Positions 1,304 through 64,000 of a stretch of 64,000 nt of DNA are shown piece after piece. Below the pieces are notes generated by a model. That model was not told the DNA's origin, did not search any database, and worked only from the letters and a program-made list of their open reading frames with translations. The position numbers were made by a program, and so were the translations under genes. How positions within the stretch are numbered: the first letter of the stretch is position 1; each line of letters opens with the position of its first letter. Source of the DNA: an uncultured Enterobacterales bacterium (GTDB taxonomy: Bacteria; Myxococcota_A; UBA796; UBA2385); the NCBI GenBank assembly GCA_964599085.1, contig CAZRFD010000026.1, positions 1,982 to 65,981 of the forward strand, given 5' to 3'.

Positions 1304-4300
1304 ATGCACAGCCTGATCGCCCTGCTGCTCGCGGCTTCGTCCGCGTCGACGGCGCTGGACGTGCTGATCATCGACGACGGCGACAGCAACACCGGCGTGC
1401 TCACCGCCGAGCTGAACGGCCGCGGCCACAGCCTGACGAACTCCGACGATGACCTGGGCTTCACCGAAGACCAGTTCGAGGGCGACGAGGTCGACCTCAC
1501 GACCTTCGACGCCGTCATCTGGCTCGACGGCTTCACGGCGGTGCTCGACGAGATGCCGGACTCGGGCCAGGCCGCGCTGTTGGAATACGTCAACGCCGGC
1601 GGTGGGCTGCTGGTCTTCGGGTCGAGCGGCTACCAGTACGCCGCCTACGACTTCCACGCGACCCTGGCCGACGTGATCCCCCTGCGCAGCGACGTCATCG
1701 GTGACGCCGACGGCACGATCGTCTGCCTCGACGACACCCACCGGGTCGCCGCCGGCTGGGCCCTGGACGAAGAGACGGTGGTGTCCACGGGTGGTATCGG
1801 CGTGGATGCCGCCGCCTCCGGCGACGTGGTCTTCGGGGCGGTGACCAGCGCCGGCGACGTCTATGACGCCATCGTCGTGACGGAGCCGGGGGACGGCCGC
1901 AGCGTGCAGTACGCGTTCTGGGGCAACGCCACGGCCGCGGGCGCGGACTTCGAGACCGACTGGGCCGACGACGCCATCAGCGACCTCGTGGAGAACGGGC
2001 TGCAGTGGGTGGTCCAGCGTCCGCCGGAGGTCACCATCACCGCGTCCTGGACCGTCGGCGCCGGCGGGACGCGCACGCTGACCCCGACCAGCGCCTACGA
2101 CCCCGACGGTGGCAGCGTGACCCTGTCGTGGGACGTGGGCGGGGACGGCACCGAAGACGGCACCGGCGACAGCTTCGACTTCGTCGCGACGGACTACGAC
2201 GGGCCCACCGAAGAGACAGTGGTCCTCACCGTCACCGACGACGAGGGCGAGTCCAGCTCGGCGACGGCGACGGTCACCATCAACAACACCGCGCCGGTCA
2301 TCGACGAGGTCCCCGCCCCCGATGTCGTCGACGAGGGGAGCGACCAGGAGCTGACGCTGCTGTTCAGCGACGTCGAGTCGGCCGACACGCACGTCGTGAG
2401 CTGGGACTTCGGCGACGGGGACACGGCTGAGGGCAACCCCATCACCCACGCCTGGGTTGACGAGGGGCGCTACACCGTCACCGTGTCCGTCACCGATGAC
2501 GATGGCGGCACCGACAGCGCCGTGTTCACCCAGTCGGTCACCAACGTCGACCCGGCGCTGTCCGGCGACCCCGATCCCACCGCCACCCAGGGCGCACTGT
2601 GGAGCTTCACCCCCACGGTCGAAGACCCGGGAGTGGACGACGTGCTGACCTTCGGGGGGACCTGGCCCCCCGACGCCGAGCTCGATCCGGACACGGGCAC
2701 GCTGACCTGGACGCCGGGCAGCGACGCCGTCGGCCTGGAGCACACCTTCGTCCTGACCGTCTCGGACGGGGATGGCGGGGAAGACGCCATGAGCTGGACG
2801 GTCACGGTCGAGCTCGACGACGTCGACGGCGACGGCATGAGCGACTCCTGGGAGGACAGCTACGGCCTGGACCCGACCGACCCCGACGACGCCGCCGAGG
2901 ACCCCGACGGCGACGGGCGGACCAACCTCGACGAGTTCACCGGCGACAGTGACCCGACGACCTACGAGGGCCCCTCGCTGCCCACCCTGATCTCCCCCAT
3001 CGCCGACGAAGAGGTCGACGACCCCACGCCGATGCTCACCATCGGCAACGCCGACGCACCGCTGGGCCAGTCGGTCAGCTACAGCTTCTACGTCTACAGC
3101 GACGCCGAGCTCACCGACCTCGTCGCCTCCGTCACCGATCGGCGGGGCGGCAACTCCGGGCAGACCACCTGGACGATCACCGGTGTGAGCCTCAGCGAGA
3201 ATGCCGACTACTGGTGGACCGCCAGCGCCGCGGATGAGTACGTCGAGACGGCCACCGTTGACCCTGCCGAGAGCTTCTTCGTCAACATCGTCAACGAAGC
3301 CCCCGACGCCCCCGAGCTGTCGACCCCCTTCGACGGCGGCATCGCCGAGAGCCTGACCCCCCAGCTCGTGCTTTACGAGTCCAGCGACCCCGACCGGGAC
3401 CCGCTCACCTACAGCATCGAGATCACGGACGAGGCCGGCACGGCCTTGACGACGACCTCGGGGCTGACGGGGGACGGCAGCACGGTGGCCTGGGTGCCTG
3501 ATGTCGTGCTCAGCGACGAGACGACCTACTGCTGGACGGCGCGCGCCGTCGACGACGAGGGTCTGGAGAGCCCCGCCGCGACGCAGGCCTGCTTCTTCGT
3601 GGACCTGGAGAACGACCCGCCGACGATGCCCACCATCGTGGACCCGGCCGACGATGGCTTCGTGCAGACGCTGTCTCCCACCATCACCGTCGAAGACGGC
3701 GTCGACCCGGAGGGGCGGGCGACCATCGAGGAGTTCCAGCTCGACGTCAGCGACGCCTTCGACTCCGAGCTGCTCCAGATCGGGCAGGTCGACGTCGACG
3801 ACGACGGCACCAGCTCCTGGGTTCCACCCGAGCTGCTCACCGAGGACACGCGCTGGTACCTGCGGGTGCGCTGCAACGACGGCGGCGCGGCCAGCGACTG
3901 GGCCACCAGCTCGTTTGTGGTCTCCGCCGACAACGCCGCTCCCTCCATCCCCGAGCTGCTGTCGCCAGCGAAGGGCGACGAGGTGACAGACGCCCCCGGG
4001 CTGACGGTGGCCAACGCCACCGACCCGGAAGCCCGCGTCCTGACCTACGACTTCCGCGTGCTCGACCGCGCCGGCCAGGTGATCACCGAGACCAGCGGTG
4101 TGGCCGAGGGCAGCGACGGCGAGACGAGCTGGACCGCCGCCAGCCTGCCGACTGGCGTGTACACCTGGAGCGCGAGGAGCGTGGACGAGGACGGCGGCGA
4201 GAGTGAGTGGGCGCAGGCCGTGGTCTTCGCGGTGAGCGACGGAGGCGCCACCACGCCCCCCGGCGACGACACCGGTGGCGGGGGGCCTGGCTATGAAGCC

Positions 4301-24867: not shown

Positions 24868-26424
24868 TCAGCGGCCGGCGCGGCGGCGGATCCGTCGTCC
24901 GACCCGTCGTCCGATCATGTCGAGGACCTCGCGGGCTTCGGGCAGGCCGACCGCCAGGATGGCGGCGAGGTAGGTGAGCCCGGCCGTACCGCCGAGCAGC
25001 GCACCCCGCACCAGGGCCGCGTCGGGGAGCGGCGCCAGCCGGTCCAGCAGCGCTGCGGCCGCCACGCCGGCGGCCACGGCGGGCGCGGCGCGCAGGGCGA
25101 AGCCTGCGAAGCCGTCCGCCACCCCGGGGTACTGCCGGCGCAGCAGCAGGATCAGCAGCAGGACGTAGGTGCTCACGGCGCCGGAGCTGGCGACGGCCAG
25201 CCCCACGGTGCCGAATTGGCGGCCCAGCCACCAGTAGGCCGGGTAGGCGACGGCGAGCACGGCGGTCCCGAGCAGCGAGGGCAGCCACGTGCGCCCCTGG
25301 ACGTAGAAGCCACGTGCGACGATGGTCTGGGCCGCCCAGGCCCACAGGGCGAGGCAGAAGATGGTCAGCGCGATTCCGATGTCGCCGTGCTGGTCGTGGG
25401 GAATGCGGCTGCCGTAGATCACCCGGGAGATCTCGGTGCCCGCGGCCGTGAGCACGACCTGTGCCCCCAGGGCCAGGACCAGCATGCGGCGGACGGCGCC
25501 GGCCAGCGTCCGGTAGGCGTCGGCGTGCTTGCCCTCTCCGACGAGGCGCGCGAGCGTGGGGTAGGCGGCGACGCCGGTCGCCAGCCCGAAGACCCCCATC
25601 GGGACCTTCATCAGCTTCTTGGCGTACTCCAGGGTCGCGACCGCCCCCTCGCCGAGCTGCGAGGCTTCTCGCCCGAGCACGGTGTCGTCGAGGGCGATGA
25701 TGCTGAAGGCCAGCATGATCGGCAGGGACCGCCACAGCCAGGCGCGGAGATCGGGGTGTCGCAGCGACAGCACGGGCCGCCAGCGCATGCCGGCCCGCAG
25801 ACAGCCGATCAAGGGCAGCAGGAAGGGGCCCAGCGCGCTGCCCGCGAGCACGCCCCAGGCGAAGCCTCGTGCGCCGGCTTCCGGGCCGCCCACGAGACCG
25901 CCGACGATGATGCCCGTGGCGTACACCAGCGGGGCGAGCGCAGGCAGGGCGTGCCGGTCCTTGGCCTGGAGCGCCGCCGACAGCAGGCCTCCGACCAGGT
26001 GGAAGAGCTGGGCTGGCAGGATGATGCGGGTCAGCAGCACCAGCTCCTGTCTGCCCGCGGCGTCGAGCCCCGGCGCAAAGATCGGCGGCACCACGTGGGG
26101 CACCGCCAGCCACATCCCGGTCCCGACGACGGCGAGGACGGCGAGGATGGCGTTGGCCACGACGCTGAAGCTGGTCCAGGCGCCCGCTTCGTCGTCGCGG
26201 GCGAGGTAGCCCGAGAAGATGGGGATGAAGACGATGCTCAGCGCGCCGCCGGCGAGCAGGTAGTTGAGGAAGTCCGGCAGCCGGAAGGACAGGAAGTAGA
26301 GATCGGCGTCGGTGCCGCCCCCCAGGACCCGGCCGATCACGGCTTCGCGCACGAGGCCGACCACGCGCGAAAGCAGGATGCTCGCGCTCCAGATCGCCGC
26401 GGCGATGCCGATGCGCCGGCTCAT
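24868..26424 (-). CDS. murJ: Lipid II flippase MurJ (MviN)
   Basis: 518 aa, about 14 TM. N-terminal SRRIGIAAAIWSASILLSRVVGLVREAVIGRVLG and overall MOP-superfamily pattern. Confidence 0.85.
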   Translation of the reverse strand: MSRRIGIAAAIWSASILLSRVVGLVREAVIGRVLGGGTDADLYFLSFRLPDFLNYLLAGGALSIVFIPIFSGYLARDDEAGAWTSFSVVANAILAVLAVVGTGMWLAVPHVVPPIFAPGLDAAGRQELVLLTRIILPAQLFHLVGGLLSAALQAKDRHALPALAPLVYATGIIVGGLVGGPEAGARGFAWGVLAGSALGPFLLPLIGCLRAGMRWRPVLSLRHPDLRAWLWRSLPIMLAFSIIALDDTVLGREASQLGEGAVATLEYAKKLMKVPMGVFGLATGVAAYPTLARLVGEGKHADAYRTLAGAVRRMLVLALGAQVVLTAAGTEISRVIYGSRIPHDQHGDIGIALTIFCLALWAWAAQTIVARGFYVQGRTWLPSLLGTAVLAVAYPAYWWLGRQFGTVGLAVASSGAVSTYVLLLILLLRRQYPGVADGFAGFALRAAPAVAAGVAAAALLDRLAPLPDAALVRGALLGGTAGLTYLAAILAVGLPEAREVLDMIGRRVGRRIRRRAGR

Positions 26425-26488
26425 GCCGCGTCCCGTTGGCGCGTGGCAGCGGTCCGGAGGAGTCGCGCGGCCGCCCGCCGCCGCGCGC

Positions 26489-27277
26489 TCACCTGCAGGT
26501 CCAGTCGGCCAGCAAGGTGAGCGAGGGATCGCCGGGTCCCTCGGTCAGCCGGTAGAGCGTGACGCGGCTGCGCGACCAGGCGGCCAGCTCGCGGTGTCCG
26601 TCCCCGTCGAGGTCGGTGGGGGGCAGCACGCGCAGGGTCTCGCAGGCGCCGTCGATGCGGTGCCAGGTCAGCACCTTGCCTGCGTCGACGTCGAGGATCG
26701 CCAGCGCGCCGGTGCAGTCGCGGACCCCGGCGGCGATCAGCACCGGGGGCGCCAGCTCGCGGCGGACCTTCGCGACGCTGCCCAGCTCGACGCCCCGGCC
26801 CTTCGTCGGGTCGGGGGTGGTGACGAGCGGGCTGAACAGGTCGGCTTCGGGCAGCAGCTCGTCGAGTCGCCAAACAGCACGTTCCACGAGGGCGGCGCGG
26901 ACGACTGGCGCGGGCACGATCTCCGGCGTCGGGGACCCGGCGGGTGGGATGATCATCGCCCCGGTCGCCGGGGCGATCCCCTCGCCGCAGGCGCCCTGCT
27001 GGCCGGAGCCGGACAGCGGCACCACCGCGCGCGCGCCGGCCGCGAGGTCGCCGGTCGTCGTGCGGTACCACGACCCGTCCCGCGCCAGGACCGCGCCCCA
27101 GCCTTCTTCGTGACCGACGGCGGCCTGCGGCACGCCGGTTGTGTCGGCGGTCGCCGCCTGGTCGACCCCGGCCTGCACCGCCTTGTCTCTGGTTTGCGGT
27201 GCGCCGACTTCGTCGGGCCCGGTCTGCGGCGCTTGCGCGCACGCGGCGACGAGCAGGAACAGGGATGCGGCCAGCAT
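26489..27277 (-). CDS. Hypothetical lipoprotein
   Basis: MLAASLFLLVAACAQ (lipobox VAAC). Contains a DLDGDGHRELA FG-GAP-like fragment. 262 aa. Confidence 0.6.
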   Translation of the reverse strand: MLAASLFLLVAACAQAPQTGPDEVGAPQTRDKAVQAGVDQAATADTTGVPQAAVGHEEGWGAVLARDGSWYRTTTGDLAAGARAVVPLSGSGQQGACGEGIAPATGAMIIPPAGSPTPEIVPAPVVRAALVERAVWRLDELLPEADLFSPLVTTPDPTKGRGVELGSVAKVRRELAPPVLIAAGVRDCTGALAILDVDAGKVLTWHRIDGACETLRVLPPTDLDGDGHRELAAWSRSRVTLYRLTEGPGDPSLTLLADWTCR

Positions 27278-27310
27278 GCGCGGGCACCTATCACCGCCGG
27301 CTGGCCGCGG

Positions 27311-28156
27311 TCAGCGCTGCCAGCTCACACCGGTCGACAGGCTCCACCCCTTCGAGCTGGCGCTGGCGATGGGGGTGGCGCTGGCCCCAAGCTCCACCGC
27401 CAGCCCGTCCACGATCCGCAGCCCGCCACCGACGCCGGCCTGCACCCACTGCTTGGTGAAGGCGTTGCTCCCCAGGGGCTGTACGCCCATGACGTCGACC
27501 GCCAGCCAGCCCAGCGACCGCTCCCCGCTGCGCGGCGACCAGCCGAGCTGCGCGTGCCAGGGAAGGCTGTCGAGGAGCTGCCGGTCGGGCCGGCTGGAGT
27601 CCCCCAGCCACCACTCCGAGCGGAACTGGTAGCCGGCCTCGAGCGCCGTCCAGCCCTCCAGCCTCCCAACCCGCAGCCCGCGGCCCACTGCGACCAGCGC
27701 CGTGAGGTCCACCTGGCCGTCACCGATCGCCGGGAAGCGCTCACCCAGGCTTCCATAGGCGGAGAGGTCGTTGTTGTCGTAGAGCGGCAGCTTGCTCTTC
27801 ACCGTGAGCGAGACGGGCCACGCGCCGAATTCGTGTCCGGCGCTCAGCCCGAGCTCGGCGTCGCCGAGCGCGCGGTTGGCATAGATCACGTCCCCGTCGA
27901 CGTTTCGCGAGGCAACAAAGGGCAGGTTCAGCACGAGCTGCAGCGGCTTGACGATCCCCACCTCGCCGTAGAGGTGCCAGGTGTTGCCGACGTACCGCGG
28001 GGCGGCCGCTGCGTCGGCGGTCTCTGCCCCGGCCGTCGGGTCGACGTACTCTCCGGCGGCGAAGCGCACGTAGCCGGCCTTGACGTAGGCGTGACCCGGG
28101 TCCTTCACCCACGGACCGGCCTGGGCATCCAGCGTCCAGAGCAGAGCGATCCACAT
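27311..28156 (-). CDS. Outer-membrane beta-barrel protein
   Basis: Internal Met MWIALLWTLDAQA (signal peptide) with GGAGGAAG SD 3 nt upstream. Amphipathic beta-strand pattern. The 56-aa N-terminal extension of the ORF lies in the promoter region and is rejected. Confidence 0.6.
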   Translation of the reverse strand: MWIALLWTLDAQAGPWVKDPGHAYVKAGYVRFAAGEYVDPTAGAETADAAAAPRYVGNTWHLYGEVGIVKPLQLVLNLPFVASRNVDGDVIYANRALGDAELGLSAGHEFGAWPVSLTVKSKLPLYDNNDLSAYGSLGERFPAIGDGQVDLTALVAVGRGLRVGRLEGWTALEAGYQFRSEWWLGDSSRPDRQLLDSLPWHAQLGWSPRSGERSLGWLAVDVMGVQPLGSNAFTKQWVQAGVGGGLRIVDGLAVELGASATPIASASSKGWSLSTGVSWQR

Positions 28157-28292
28157 GCGCTTCCTCCCGAGCGGTCCGCACCTGATGCCGCGATGGTCGC
28201 CCGGCTTCGTGCCGAGGAGCACATCGACGCGCGCTCGCGGGCCCGCTCGCCCCCGTCCCCTGTTCCGCCCCGTCCCGGGGACCGCACCCGGA

Positions 28293-28372
28293 ACGGGAAA
28301 AGGCCGGGCCTCCCGCGAGGCCAAGTGTGGGGGGGGGACGCACTCGGCCGTCAGCGGGAGGTCCCGGCCATA
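28293..28372 (-). terminator. Intrinsic terminator-like structure: 15-bp GC stem (GGCCGGGACCTCCCGC / GCGGGAGGCCCGGCC), ~38-nt loop containing a C9 run, followed by UUUUCC
   Basis: Inverted repeat seen directly, followed on the minus strand by a T tract. About 150-220 nt downstream of the 28517 stop of the lipoprotein gene. Coordinates approximate. Confidence 0.4.
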
Positions 28373-28400
28373 CGACCTGGTAGCCAGGTCCGTCGGAACA
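28293..28400 (-). ncRNA. Candidate ~100-nt small RNA (promoter to terminator) or 3'-UTR/leader element
   Basis: Inferred from the promoter-like hexamers about 30 nt upstream and the terminator-like hairpin plus U tract at its 3' end. No coding potential. Confidence 0.2.
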
Positions 28401-28403
28401 CTC

Positions 28404-28436
28404 GTAGAGTATTTGCTCTTACACTTCCATGCAAGA
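28404..28436 (-). promoter_or_regulatory. Sigma-70-like promoter candidate (TTGCAT-N17-TACTCT) in the only AT-rich patch of the intergenic region
   Basis: Read on the minus strand: TTGCAT ggaagtgtaagagcaaa TACTCT. Local GC is far below the 70% background. Coordinates approximate. Confidence 0.3.
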
Positions 28437-28516
28437 GCAGGGTCTCGCTTTTTTTGCTGGAGGTTCGGGGAGTGATGGTCCCGGCACGGCGAACCGCACC
28501 TGATGTGGCGGGACGC

Positions 28517-31006
28517 CTACTGGTTGAGGGTGTCGCCGTCGCAGTAGGGCGTGCCGTTCTCGTCGCGCTTGTCGTCTTCGAGGTCGGGGTAGGACCACTT
28601 GTCCTTGCGGATCTTGTCGACCTTGAAGCTGCCCTCCACGACCATGACCGAGCTGGACTCGAAGCCCTCGAGCAGGATCTGGAAGTCGCCCTCGGCGGCT
28701 CCGCCCTCTTCGAGGGTCGCGCCGTCCTTGATGCGGATCCACGAGCTGGACACCTCGGCCCAGCCGTCGAGGCCGGCGTCGCGGTCGTCGATGGGCCGCC
28801 AGAAGTTGGATTCCGTGCGGTGCACGAAGGCCGGGTCGCCGTCGATGGCTTCGTCGACGCCCTTGCCCTGCATGGCGACGTGGCTGATCTCCTTGGACCA
28901 GGCGTCGGCGTCGTCCTGGTGGCAGACGTACCCACCCATGTAGTGATCGTCGCAGGAGGTCAGCACCGTCACGGTGCGGTAGCAGGTCTCGTCGCCGTCG
29001 GACGCGATCCAGGTGGCTTCGTAGAAGCCGTCGACGTCCCGATCCAGGGTCGCGGTGCCGTCACCGTTGTCGGCCAGCAGGTCGGCTTCCGGGTCGGAGC
29101 ACCACGGCTGGTACGTCAGGTCCCAGTAGCCGGAGACACTGTCGCCGTCGGGGTCGGTCAGGCCGTTGATCGCGAGGTCGACGGGTTCGCCGGAGGCCGC
29201 CCAGGCGTTCGAGGAGACGTCGCACAGCGGCGGGTTGTTCCGCACGTCGACGACGATCTCGGAGATGCAGGACTCACCCTGTTCGTCGGTGCCCGTCATG
29301 GCGAGGCGGTACTCTCCGCTGCGGTCCGCCGTGAACGAGGCGGCCGATGAGGCCCCCGAGGGGTCGACCATCACGACCTCGGACGCGCTGCCCGAGGGGG
29401 CCGAGGCGATCGCCCAGGAGTAGGTGACATCGGTCCCGTCCGGGTCCACCGCGACGCCGTCGAGCAGGTCGAAGCTGTCGCCGTAGCGCCCCTGGAGCCC
29501 CACACCGGCGCTGCAGTTGGGGGCCTTGCTGGCCGGCGGGCCGTCGGCGGGGTCGTAGACGTCGTAGGTCGTCTGGCTGGCACAGGAGGCGCCGTCTGTG
29601 TCGACGGCTTCCAGGCTGATCGTCCAGTACCCGGTCCAGTCCAGGGGGTAGTCGAGCGAGGGGCCGGCGTCGTCGAAGCTGTCGTCGACGGCTTCGGTGA
29701 CGACGTTGCCGTCGGAGTCGACGACGGGGTCACCGTTCTTGTCGAGCACCGGCGTCTGCCCCTGGACCCGCCAGTTGTAGGTCAGCGCGTCGCCGTCCGG
29801 ATCGCTGGTCAGGCCGGCGTCGAAGGTCGCGGTGGTACCCATGGCCACGGTGTCGCCGGGCAGGGCAAAGCAGTTGGGGACGTGGTTGGGGTCTTCCACC
29901 GTGACGGTGATCTCGTCGAAGCTCGACCAGGCGCCGTCGTTGACGGTCAGCGACACGGTGTAGGTCCCCGGCACATCGGCGACGAAGTCAGCCGTCGGCG
30001 TGTCGACCAGCAGCGAGGCGGCCGAGTCGCCAGGCGCCGACAACGACCAGAAGTAGGTCAGCTCGTCGCCGTCGGGGTCGGTGGAGGCCGTGCCGTCGAG
30101 GCTGACGGTGTCGCCCACGGCAACGTTGAGGTCGCCACCGGCGATGGTGGCCAGCGGCGGGACGTCGTCCCGGCTGGCACCACACTGGTTGCGGTAGTCC
30201 TCGAGCAGGTCGAAGTTGGGACCCTCGCCCGACTCGTCGTAGTTGCCGTAGTCGGTGGGGCGGACCGTGAACTCTTCCGCGGCGAACTTCGCGATGGAGA
30301 AGCCCGCGCTCCAGTCGGTGTTGAAGTACCAGAACACGATGCTGTCGCCCGAGGTCGACGGGTCGACCTGGAAGGAGCCGGCGTTGAGGTAGTAGATCTT
30401 GTTGCCGTCTTCGTCTTCGGACCAGGCATCGCTCCACGACTGGCCGTCGACGTACTCGACAGAAGCGGTGCCGTCGCCGTCGGTGTCGACGCACTCCAGC
30501 GGCGCGAAGTCCGGCTTGATCGAGAAGTTGAAGCGCATGTCCTGGCCGCTGCCCAGCTTGTTGTGCATCGTGAGCTGGAAGTCGCCCTCGCCGTTCATCA
30601 CGGCTTCGCTGCGCCACACGTCGAGGGGCTCGGTCAGGTAGTAGTAGCCGTCGTCCTGGAGGAACTTGTAGTACTGCAGGGCGTCGATCTCGGCGCACTG
30701 GGCGTCGAGCACGTCCTGGTCACAGGCGCTGTCGGCCGGGTCGCAGGCGCCGCCGTAGAACTTGCTGCCGTCGCCGATGGTGTCGCCCTGGCGGGGGCCG
30801 ATGTAGCCGAGCTCGAAGTCGCCGCGGTCTTCATCCCAACCGCGCGCGCAGTCGTAGATGCGGGTGGCGCGTTCGGCGAGGTCGAGCTTGCCCTCGTCCA
30901 CGGTGGCGGAGTTGTTCGCCGCCAGCCAGACGTGCCAGGAGCCGGTGACTTCGGCGTCCTGGGGGGCGCAGCCGGTGAGGAGGAGGGCGAGGAGGATGCT
31001 GGCCAC
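28517..31006 (-). CDS. Large lipoprotein with tandem PKD/Ig-like beta-sandwich domains
   Basis: MASILLALLLTGCAP lipobox. Repeated domain pattern DPDGDxLTYxW...G.YTVSLTVNDG. 829 aa with slightly lower GC than neighbours. Confidence 0.8.
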   Translation of the reverse strand: MASILLALLLTGCAPQDAEVTGSWHVWLAANNSATVDEGKLDLAERATRIYDCARGWDEDRGDFELGYIGPRQGDTIGDGSKFYGGACDPADSACDQDVLDAQCAEIDALQYYKFLQDDGYYYLTEPLDVWRSEAVMNGEGDFQLTMHNKLGSGQDMRFNFSIKPDFAPLECVDTDGDGTASVEYVDGQSWSDAWSEDEDGNKIYYLNAGSFQVDPSTSGDSIVFWYFNTDWSAGFSIAKFAAEEFTVRPTDYGNYDESGEGPNFDLLEDYRNQCGASRDDVPPLATIAGGDLNVAVGDTVSLDGTASTDPDGDELTYFWSLSAPGDSAASLLVDTPTADFVADVPGTYTVSLTVNDGAWSSFDEITVTVEDPNHVPNCFALPGDTVAMGTTATFDAGLTSDPDGDALTYNWRVQGQTPVLDKNGDPVVDSDGNVVTEAVDDSFDDAGPSLDYPLDWTGYWTISLEAVDTDGASCASQTTYDVYDPADGPPASKAPNCSAGVGLQGRYGDSFDLLDGVAVDPDGTDVTYSWAIASAPSGSASEVVMVDPSGASSAASFTADRSGEYRLAMTGTDEQGESCISEIVVDVRNNPPLCDVSSNAWAASGEPVDLAINGLTDPDGDSVSGYWDLTYQPWCSDPEADLLADNGDGTATLDRDVDGFYEATWIASDGDETCYRTVTVLTSCDDHYMGGYVCHQDDADAWSKEISHVAMQGKGVDEAIDGDPAFVHRTESNFWRPIDDRDAGLDGWAEVSSSWIRIKDGATLEEGGAAEGDFQILLEGFESSSVMVVEGSFKVDKIRKDKWSYPDLEDDKRDENGTPYCDGDTLNQ

Positions 31007-63365: not shown

Positions 63366-63539
63366 CGGGCGGCCGGTCCGTTCGGACGAGAGGGGGAGGG
63401 GAGCCCGGGGGGCCCCGAGCGACGGGACGGAGTGCCCCATAGCCGCCGTCATCGCGGGCCGGCAAGACCGGTTCGGGTCGGTCGCGCTCGGCAGCCGCGC
63501 CGATGCGGACCAGGGCGCGTCACCGGGTACACGTAGGCG

Positions 63540-63900
63540 ACGTGGCGCGGCTTGCCCACGATGTGGGGGTGGGGGGGGGGGAAGCTCACCGAGCTGCCTC
63601 CCGCGATGCAGCGTTCGAGACACATCGCGGACCGCGAGGGTGCGAGGGCGCCAATTCGCGGGGGCGCGAGGGTGTGAGGGTGCGGGTCGCTTCACAAGTC
63701 GGGGGGGGGGGCTGGCACAGCCCCCCGCAGTGGTGACGCCGCGCTCGAGCTGGGGGAGGCGCGAGTCGCGTCGCTCGCGACACAAGTCGGGGGGCTGGCG
63801 CAGCCCCACCAGGCCCGGGCCGAGGGCGCGAGTCCGCGAAGTCCGCGCGTCCGCGAGGCCGCGAGGCCGCGAGGCCTGAGGGCGCGAAGGTGTCGCTTGC
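63540..63900. repeat. Repeat-rich GC intergenic region: two G11 homopolymers, two copies of a ~30-bp hairpin repeat (CACAAGTCGGGGGG..CTGGCRCAGCCCC), GCGAGGGTG iterations and (CCGCGAGG)x3
   Basis: Seen directly. Coordinates approximate. Confidence 0.55.
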
Positions 63901-64000
63901 GTCAGGGCTTCATGCGCATTGTTGCCGGGGGCGGTGGCGCCGCGGTCAGCGCGCCGCCGTCGCGCTCAGCGTGTCGGCCATGGTGCTCCAGGAGCGGTCC

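Follow-up and report, generated by a model that had tools for sequence, protein, structure and literature searches.

A conserved structured RNA with a C-rich apical loop upstream of an outer-membrane barrel and murJ operon, a candidate small RNA of uncultured high-GC bacteria

Introduction

What is encoded by the spacer that separates a large lipoprotein gene from an operon for an outer-membrane protein and MurJ in an uncultured high-GC bacterium? A preliminary description of this locus had pointed to a promoter-like pair and a long-stem terminator on the minus strand, which together would delimit a non-coding transcript of ~100 nt, and had offered the alternative that the hairpin terminates the lipoprotein gene while the promoter drives the downstream operon through an attenuator. 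Almost nothing is known about the regulatory RNAs of uncultured high-GC Myxococcota-like lineages, and an element placed directly ahead of genes for an outer-membrane channel and the lipid II flippase is a candidate regulator of the cell envelope. Here, the window means the whole 64,000-nt stretch of DNA that was analysed, and positions are counted from its first letter.

Results

The locus and its conservation in relatives

The genes around the element all lie on the minus strand, and the spacer between the lipoprotein gene and the barrel gene is 360 nt long:

28517..31006, minus strand: upstream gene, an 829-aa lipoprotein with PKD domains (Pfam PKD families; TAG stop codon at 28519-28517)
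27311..28156, minus strand: downstream gene, a 281-aa outer-membrane beta-barrel (ATG at 28156, with GGGAGGA ahead of the start)
26421-27287, minus strand: 288-aa open reading frame after the barrel gene
24868-26424, minus strand: murJ, after the 288-aa open reading frame (TIGR01695 equivalog match)

The names first given to the downstream genes were borne out. AlphaFold models the 281-aa protein as a beta-barrel with 13 strand segments and an internal helix (pLDDT 89.9), in keeping with its label as an outer-membrane protein, and the TIGR01695 equivalog match upholds the label murJ. The nearest structures found with Foldseek are FapF, a protein of amyloid secretion, and the COG4313 channels (TM ~0.6, 11-12% identity), which we take to be 12-stranded; no Pfam or NCBIfam family matched the barrel protein. 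Its homologs form at least 47 clusters, none of them informatively named. The AT-rich patch noted at the outset is also real, positions 28396-28455 being the 60-nt stretch of lowest GC in the window (43% vs a mean of 71.6%) and positions 28367-28466 the 100-nt stretch of lowest GC. A search for known RNA genes found no tRNA or tmRNA gene.

Relatives were collected through the barrel protein and a 21-mer of the 3' arm of the hairpin, from a genome collection (L001 and L002), from metagenomes (L003 and L006) and via homologous proteins (L007-L019), and the source records label the loci as Deltaproteobacteria, Oligoflexia, Myxococcota or Proteobacteria MAGs. Conservation in related genomes, which had been proposed as a check, was found: the element is present in full in 14 loci including the window (13 further copies), an additional copy in L002 is cut by the contig end, and all copies are syntenic. 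The element always lies between the lipoprotein gene and the barrel gene, on the same strand and 55-160 nt upstream of the latter, with murJ following, in a conserved gene order of multihaem cytochrome, epimerase, lipoprotein, barrel, hypothetical protein and MurJ. A lipoprotein ortholog precedes it wherever upstream sequence is present, that is, everywhere but in the truncated L002. The barrel proteins of the element-bearing loci are 40-75% identical, with L018 at 40%. When the window is compared with L001, the alignable part of the spacer begins at the -35 region and stops at the tail, with a nearly identical hairpin and different flanks, and across the loci the flanking intergenic DNA has diverged beyond alignment around conserved promoter elements, 5' hairpin and long hairpin.

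The operon also occurs without the element. In L010 (GCA_020632755.1, labelled Alphaproteobacteria) the gene order is the same, the corresponding gap at 2970-3001 measures 30 nt and no element was found in 6.9 kb; the element is thus not needed as a part of the operon, and in this lineage it was either lost or moved. It is likewise absent from L017, which is not syntenic. A covariance model of the element (see below) found only the syntenic copy in the window and in each locus, the next best match having E = 0.29, and with one copy per 64-kb window or homologous locus the element does not show the distribution of a dispersed repeat of the REP or MITE-like kind. A pattern scan of viral contigs returned no match to the element, and a link to phages or mobile elements was discarded on that ground. 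Two groundwater metagenome contigs (L004 at 1161-1181 and L005 at 286-306) carry only the exact 21-mer CTCGCGGGAGGCCCGGCCTTT, with lower GC and with neither a 5' arm nor a model match, and are probably chance matches of a self-complementary GC-rich string.

The lipoprotein itself differs in size between loci. It has 820-829 aa and PKD domains in the window, L007 and L013, and its counterpart in other loci, L009, L011, L012 and L014-L019 among them, has 408-530 aa and no Pfam match, a length contrast that suggests gain or loss of a PKD module.

A structured RNA on the gene strand

The core of the element is a long hairpin that is followed by a pyrimidine-rich tail:

28302..28369, minus strand: long hairpin of 68 nt, the core of the family, identified by covariance model, compensatory changes and G-U strand bias
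28369-28354 with 28316-28302, minus strand: lower stem P1, GGCCGGGACCTCCCGC paired with GCGGGAGGCCCGGCC, 15 pairs and one bulged A at 28362
28349-28341 with 28327-28319, minus strand: upper stem P2, 9 bp, above an asymmetric internal loop
28340-28328, minus strand: apical loop of 13 nt, with C9 at 28337-28329
28291..28301, minus strand: 3' tail UUUUCCCGUUC, the presumed termination site (TTTT at 28301-28298, then CC)

The 15-bp inverted repeat followed by UUUUCC that had been reported at this place is present as described, but it forms only the base of the longer 68-nt hairpin. The 116-nt stretch that contains this hairpin and a smaller one on its 5' side folds at -65.9 kcal/mol (z = -5.6, 200 shuffles). 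Folded alone, each copy adopts the same shape (z -4.4 to -7.2), and the long hairpin is very stable across copies, at about -45 to -55 kcal/mol.

A covariance model, R1, which we built from the 14 copies, gives them 68-98 bits when the gene strand is read and 16-27 bits for the opposite strand. In the R1 alignment of the long hairpin, which was fitted to the structure of the model and so favours the pairing figures, 98.3% of the cells are standard pairs. Double changes are seen in eight pairs, and covariation in 6 of the 7 pairs of the upper stem; these values were reached in none of 500 shuffles, controls with slid partners were paired to 37-52%, and MAFFT, used as an independent aligner, led to the same result. 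The gene strand has 16 G-U cells and the opposite strand 3, which identifies the gene strand as the RNA strand. From copy to copy the C run ranges between 7 and 10, and the apical and internal loops contain insertions and deletions, which excludes conserved coding. We regard it as virtually certain that the minus strand carries a conserved structured RNA element.

A conserved putative promoter and a small 5' hairpin

Upstream of the long hairpin, the spacer contains the following features:

28448..28458, minus strand: A-rich tract AGCAAAAAAAG, a possible, weakly indicated UP-like element 14 nt upstream of the -35 hexamer
28429..28434, minus strand: -35-like hexamer TTGCAT
28428-28412, minus strand: promoter spacer of 17 nt
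28406..28411, minus strand: -10-like hexamer TACTCT
28391..28401, minus strand: predicted transcript start, ~28401-28399 from spacing only, and single-stranded 5' end GUGUUCCGACG
28374..28390, minus strand: small 5' hairpin GACCUGG-CUA-CCAGGUC, 4 nt upstream of the long hairpin and absent from the preliminary description
28370..28373, minus strand: linker GUAU, in which the T directly ahead of GGCC is invariant in 14 copies

The TTGCAT-17 nt-TACTCT pair was found as first described, on the minus strand at 28434-28406. As a single sequence it makes a weak promoter, since each hexamer agrees with the consensus at three of six positions, and a consensus promoter scan of 27500-29500 called none. 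The pattern TTG-N20-TANNNT has one match in 64 kb, counting both strands, and that match is at the element; 0.71 are expected by chance, so the promoter does not stand above chance in the single sequence, whereas in the comparative data it does. With one such match per 64 kb, most promoters of this 72% GC organism are evidently unlike the E. coli consensus.

Ten of the 14 loci have TTG-N19-21-TA at a distance of 55-82 nt ahead of the hairpin, and in the remaining 300 kb of the collected sequences the pattern has a frequency of 0.019 per 110 nt; because the copies are related, its recurrence in ten of them counts as conservation and not as ten independent events. In the five closest copies CTTGC and the TA of the -10 hexamer are invariant, and the spacer and the DNA upstream vary, a pattern that reads, from sequence, as the footprint expected of a promoter. 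The positions homologous to the -10 hexamer are TACCTG, TACACT, TACACT, TAGAAT, TAAGGT, TAGCCT, TATCAC, TAAGAT and TAGCAG. In the window, L001, L006 and L007 the sequence GTGT follows at exactly 4 nt after the -10 hexamer, and this fixed distance is the reason for which we would place the transcript start near 28401-28399. The A-rich tract reads AGCATAAAAAG in L001 and is not evident in more distant copies.

All ten promoter-bearing copies have a 5' hairpin of 5-9 bp at the same place, and its sequence and loop differ between copies, UUCG and GCGA tetraloops among them; in L001 it is enlarged by an insertion. That a hairpin of differing sequence has been kept in all ten argues that the stretch is transcribed and that the structure matters. 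The four remaining copies have no recognisable promoter. L014 and L018 possess longer structured 5' regions, and in L015 and L016 the hairpin begins 51 and 24 nt, respectively, past the lipoprotein stop codon, which leaves no room for a promoter, so that the lipoprotein transcript would have to supply the RNA there as its 3' end, unless a start lies inside that gene. For the window, we consider it likely that the RNA has a promoter of its own.

A palindrome, TGCTCTTGCA-N6-TGTAAGAGCA, overlaps the -35 hexamer at 28414-28439. Its counterpart in L001, CGCTTGCG-N6-CGTAAGCG, shows two compensatory differences with a G-U pair kept. We rejected TGCTCTTGCA/TGTAAGAGCA as a feature of the family, as it is absent in L003, L006, L007, L009 and the more distant copies; it may be a lineage-specific operator.

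The apical C run and the lower stem

The motif GUC(7-10) is kept in 13 of the 14 copies, in loops of 12-16 nt. The exception, L003, has ACCUCCC in place of the C run, which is an anti-Shine-Dalgarno string and would fit a role at ribosome-binding sites. In every individual fold the loop is unpaired, and the stem below it covaries, the unpaired apical C run thus being more conserved than the neighbouring stem, as in a C-rich seed loop.

Further down, the lower 12 bp are almost invariant across the copies, as is the bulge (13 A, 1 U). In the invariant part, GGCCGGG-A-CCUCC is paired with GGAGGCCCGGCC to form a helix that is anti-SD/SD-like and has one bulged A. Twelve invariant pairs are more than a seed displayed in a loop would need, and they hint at a protein partner or at a second pairing.

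We searched for targets among the start regions of the neighbouring genes and found no consistent complementarity to the loop or the 5' end across the loci; as no ortholog scores consistently, the neighbouring genes were set aside as targets.

The 3' tail

Positions 1-7 of the tail hold a pyrimidine in nearly all 14 copies, the exceptions being A in L003 and G in L015, L016 and L018. For an intrinsic terminator we required a GC-rich stem and, immediately behind it, a U tract with at least 5 U in 8 positions. The GC-rich stem is present, but the tail here has only 4 U before CC, most copies have only 3-4 consecutive U and the tract is interrupted in about half of them (UCCCUUCU and similar). 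A terminator scan called none at this place, the apical loop exceeding 8 nt and the tract containing only 4 T. The short or interrupted U tract makes efficient termination uncertain. Several loci have hairpins just past the lipoprotein stop codon that we considered as separate terminators and discarded, their energies being mostly no better than those of shuffles.

Directly after the U tract, CCCGUUCCG can pair with CGGAACAGG, 21 nt downstream (28259-28297), and the 5' end of the predicted RNA contains GUUCCG as well (28399-28394). L001 and L009 keep CCCGUUC in the tail, and in neither is the downstream pairing partner evident.

Discussion

A new family, probably within the C-rich-loop class

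At gathering thresholds, Rfam 15, one of the checks suggested at the outset, gave no match in the window or in 16 homologous loci, for 6C, sX13, RsaE and other C-rich small RNAs as for all other families, and permissive scans of three copies returned only chance-level matches to miRNAs and snoRNAs (E 0.016 to 8.5), far below the thresholds. With no Rfam 15 match for the window copy or its homologs, the element is a new RNA family, one that by its design falls within the known class of small RNAs with C-rich loops, which is a functional class and not a homology family. In one recent paper on ncRNA discovery, we looked for Myxococcota, murJ and C-rich motifs without a hit.

In layout, the closest known system is RepG (HPnc5490) of Helicobacter pylori, whose terminator hairpin has a C/U-rich loop for pairing to the homopolymeric G-repeat of an mRNA leader (PMC8295292). 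Both RNAs have two stem-loops and carry the C run in the loop of the 3' terminator or terminator-like hairpin; they share no similarity in sequence or model, their hosts differ in phylum and GC, and the hairpin described here is much longer and has an invariant lower stem. The 6C RNA of Actinobacteria, whose loops with at least 6 C bind G-rich mRNA sites without a chaperone (PMC6486639), resembles our element in its high-GC host and in the C runs in the loops of its stem-loops, but it has two C-rich loops vs one here, it comes from an unrelated lineage and the permissive Rfam scan gave no 6C match. In sX13 of Xanthomonas (PMC3771888) and GsrN of Caulobacter (PMC5869019), apical C-rich loops of 4-6 C base-pair to G-rich motifs that lie close to translation starts or at the mRNA 5' end, and no part of GsrN is more conserved than its C-rich loop (PMC5869019). 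The apical C-rich loop is what our element shares with these two; sX13 differs in its three loops, GsrN has its C loop in a 5' hairpin and an EcfG type of promoter that is not seen here, and neither gives a model match. Enterobacterial small RNAs derived from 3' UTRs, of the CpxQ, SroC and DapZ type, share the terminator with the protein gene upstream. The L015 and L016 copies, close behind the stop codon and without their own promoter, are similar to these, whereas 10 of the 14 copies, including that of the window, differ from them by a conserved putative promoter in the spacer.

A candidate base-pairing small RNA

Because the promoter elements, the 5' hairpin and the long hairpin have been kept together at syntenic sites, we favour the reading as a small RNA, and by analogy with the systems above this anatomy (promoter, short free 5' end, 5' hairpin, stable 3' hairpin with a pyrimidine tail and conserved unpaired C run) is most likely that of a base-pairing small RNA with a seed in its C-rich loop. 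The non-coding transcript of ~100 nt, running from the promoter to the long stem, that had been proposed for this spacer is likewise favoured by the comparative evidence, namely the conservation of the unit, the compensatory changes and the strand-specific G-U pairs.

In the scheme that we propose, a promoter of the sigma-70 type (-35 at 28434-28429, -10 at 28411-28406) would start a transcript near 28401 made up of a short unpaired 5' end, a small hairpin that would protect it and the long GC-rich hairpin, and this transcript would probably end at the pyrimidine-rich tail, at ~28297, to give an RNA of ~105 nt. The long hairpin would display the unpaired loop GUCCCCCCCCC, and this C-rich loop could serve as the seed for G-rich stretches, either Shine-Dalgarno-like or G-repeat, in mRNAs elsewhere in the genome, the translation or stability of which would be altered by the pairing. 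The hairpin may in addition terminate transcription that arrives from the upstream lipoprotein gene, and in some relatives the same RNA would be the 3' end of the lipoprotein mRNA, without a promoter of its own. We rate the scheme as a whole, an independent minus-strand small RNA gene with a C-loop seed that pairs with G-rich mRNA sites, as having an even chance of being right, and action in trans through the C loop, taken by itself, as conceivable but slightly doubtful.

The explanation that comes next is the one offered from the start as the alternative, in which the element acts in cis as a leader or attenuator. The barrel-murJ operon would then be transcribed from the promoter at 28434-28406, with the RNA as its 5' leader, and the hairpin, as a partial terminator or as a processing or stability element, would set the share of transcription that gets through to the operon, possibly modulated by a factor that recognises the invariant stem. 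MurJ is generally essential, and its gene needs transcription from somewhere. The constant strand and the constant placement 55-160 nt ahead of the barrel gene speak for such a leader, as does the weak U tract, which makes read-through likely (transcription from this promoter or from the lipoprotein gene may supply the operon), and no other sigma-70-like promoter was found between hairpin and start codon in 12 loci. This last point is weak evidence, however, because the sigma-70-like pattern is nearly absent from the window (one match in 64 kb), and the search for a separate sigma-70-like promoter of the barrel gene was uninformative for the same reason. No antiterminator pairing was seen, and when the whole intergenic region is folded nothing but the same hairpins comes out, with no partner that would compete for the terminator arms. 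An attenuator or riboswitch would call for mutually exclusive pairings or a conserved pocket, and here the long hairpin is very stable and the bases of its internal loop vary, so that nothing in it looks like a ligand pocket. Among the unpaired positions it is instead the apical C run that is conserved, a typical feature of seeds; the leader from hairpin to start codon is conserved in neither sequence nor length, and L010 runs the operon without the element. We hold a leader or attenuator to be unlikely.

The small RNA might act through a protein and not through mRNA. As a protein-binding or sponge RNA, its lower stem and poly-C loop would be recognised by a protein (a KH-type poly(C) binder, Rho, RNase III or a FinO/ProQ-like protein) and would not form an mRNA seed. 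An invariant 12-bp helix with a conserved bulge is indeed unusual for base-pairing small RNAs, and no mRNA target came to light among the neighbouring genes, but no candidate gene for a partner is linked to the element in the loci, and a base-pairing role of C-rich loops is well documented (PMC6486639, PMC3771888). We consider this explanation quite unlikely. A further reading, which we rate as a long shot, treats the 12-bp anti-SD/SD-like helix with its bulge and the poly-C terminator loop as one dedicated recognition module, either a RepG-like sensor of G-repeats or an element that binds a protein or RNA polymerase and governs read-through into the envelope operon; if true, it would be a regulatory device undescribed for this phylum.

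That the element is only an intrinsic terminator or a 3'-end stabiliser of the lipoprotein gene, with promoter hexamers that arose by chance in the AT-richer spacer, is very improbable: the hairpin does follow the lipoprotein gene in every locus, at 24-51 nt past the stop codon in L016 and L015, and joins a GC-rich stem to a pyrimidine tail, but terminator stems normally drift in sequence and here 12 bp and the loop are invariant across loci whose proteins are only 40% identical, TTG-N-TA and the 5' hairpin are conserved between stop codon and hairpin in 10 of 14 loci, and in 12 of 14 the hairpin lies as far as 94-188 nt past the stop.

The family, with 14 sequences, support from covariation and a working covariance model, is usable for RNA databases and for the annotation of MAGs. 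The candidate small RNA would extend the design of a C-rich loop directed against a G-rich site to another phylum, and the invariant lower stem sets a concrete puzzle; neither amounts to a new principle.

Within the window, the loop finds its closest complements outside itself in two plus-strand G11 runs, at 63571-63581 and 63701-63711, which are the only other long homopolymers of the window. The runs lie in a repeat-rich intergenic stretch of 540 nt (63366-63910) upstream of a minus-strand gene for a response-regulator-like protein (start at ~63365), and the direct repeats of this stretch comprise ACAAGTCGGGGGG..CTGGC(A/G)CAGCCCC, which occurs twice, and CGCGAGGC in tandem.
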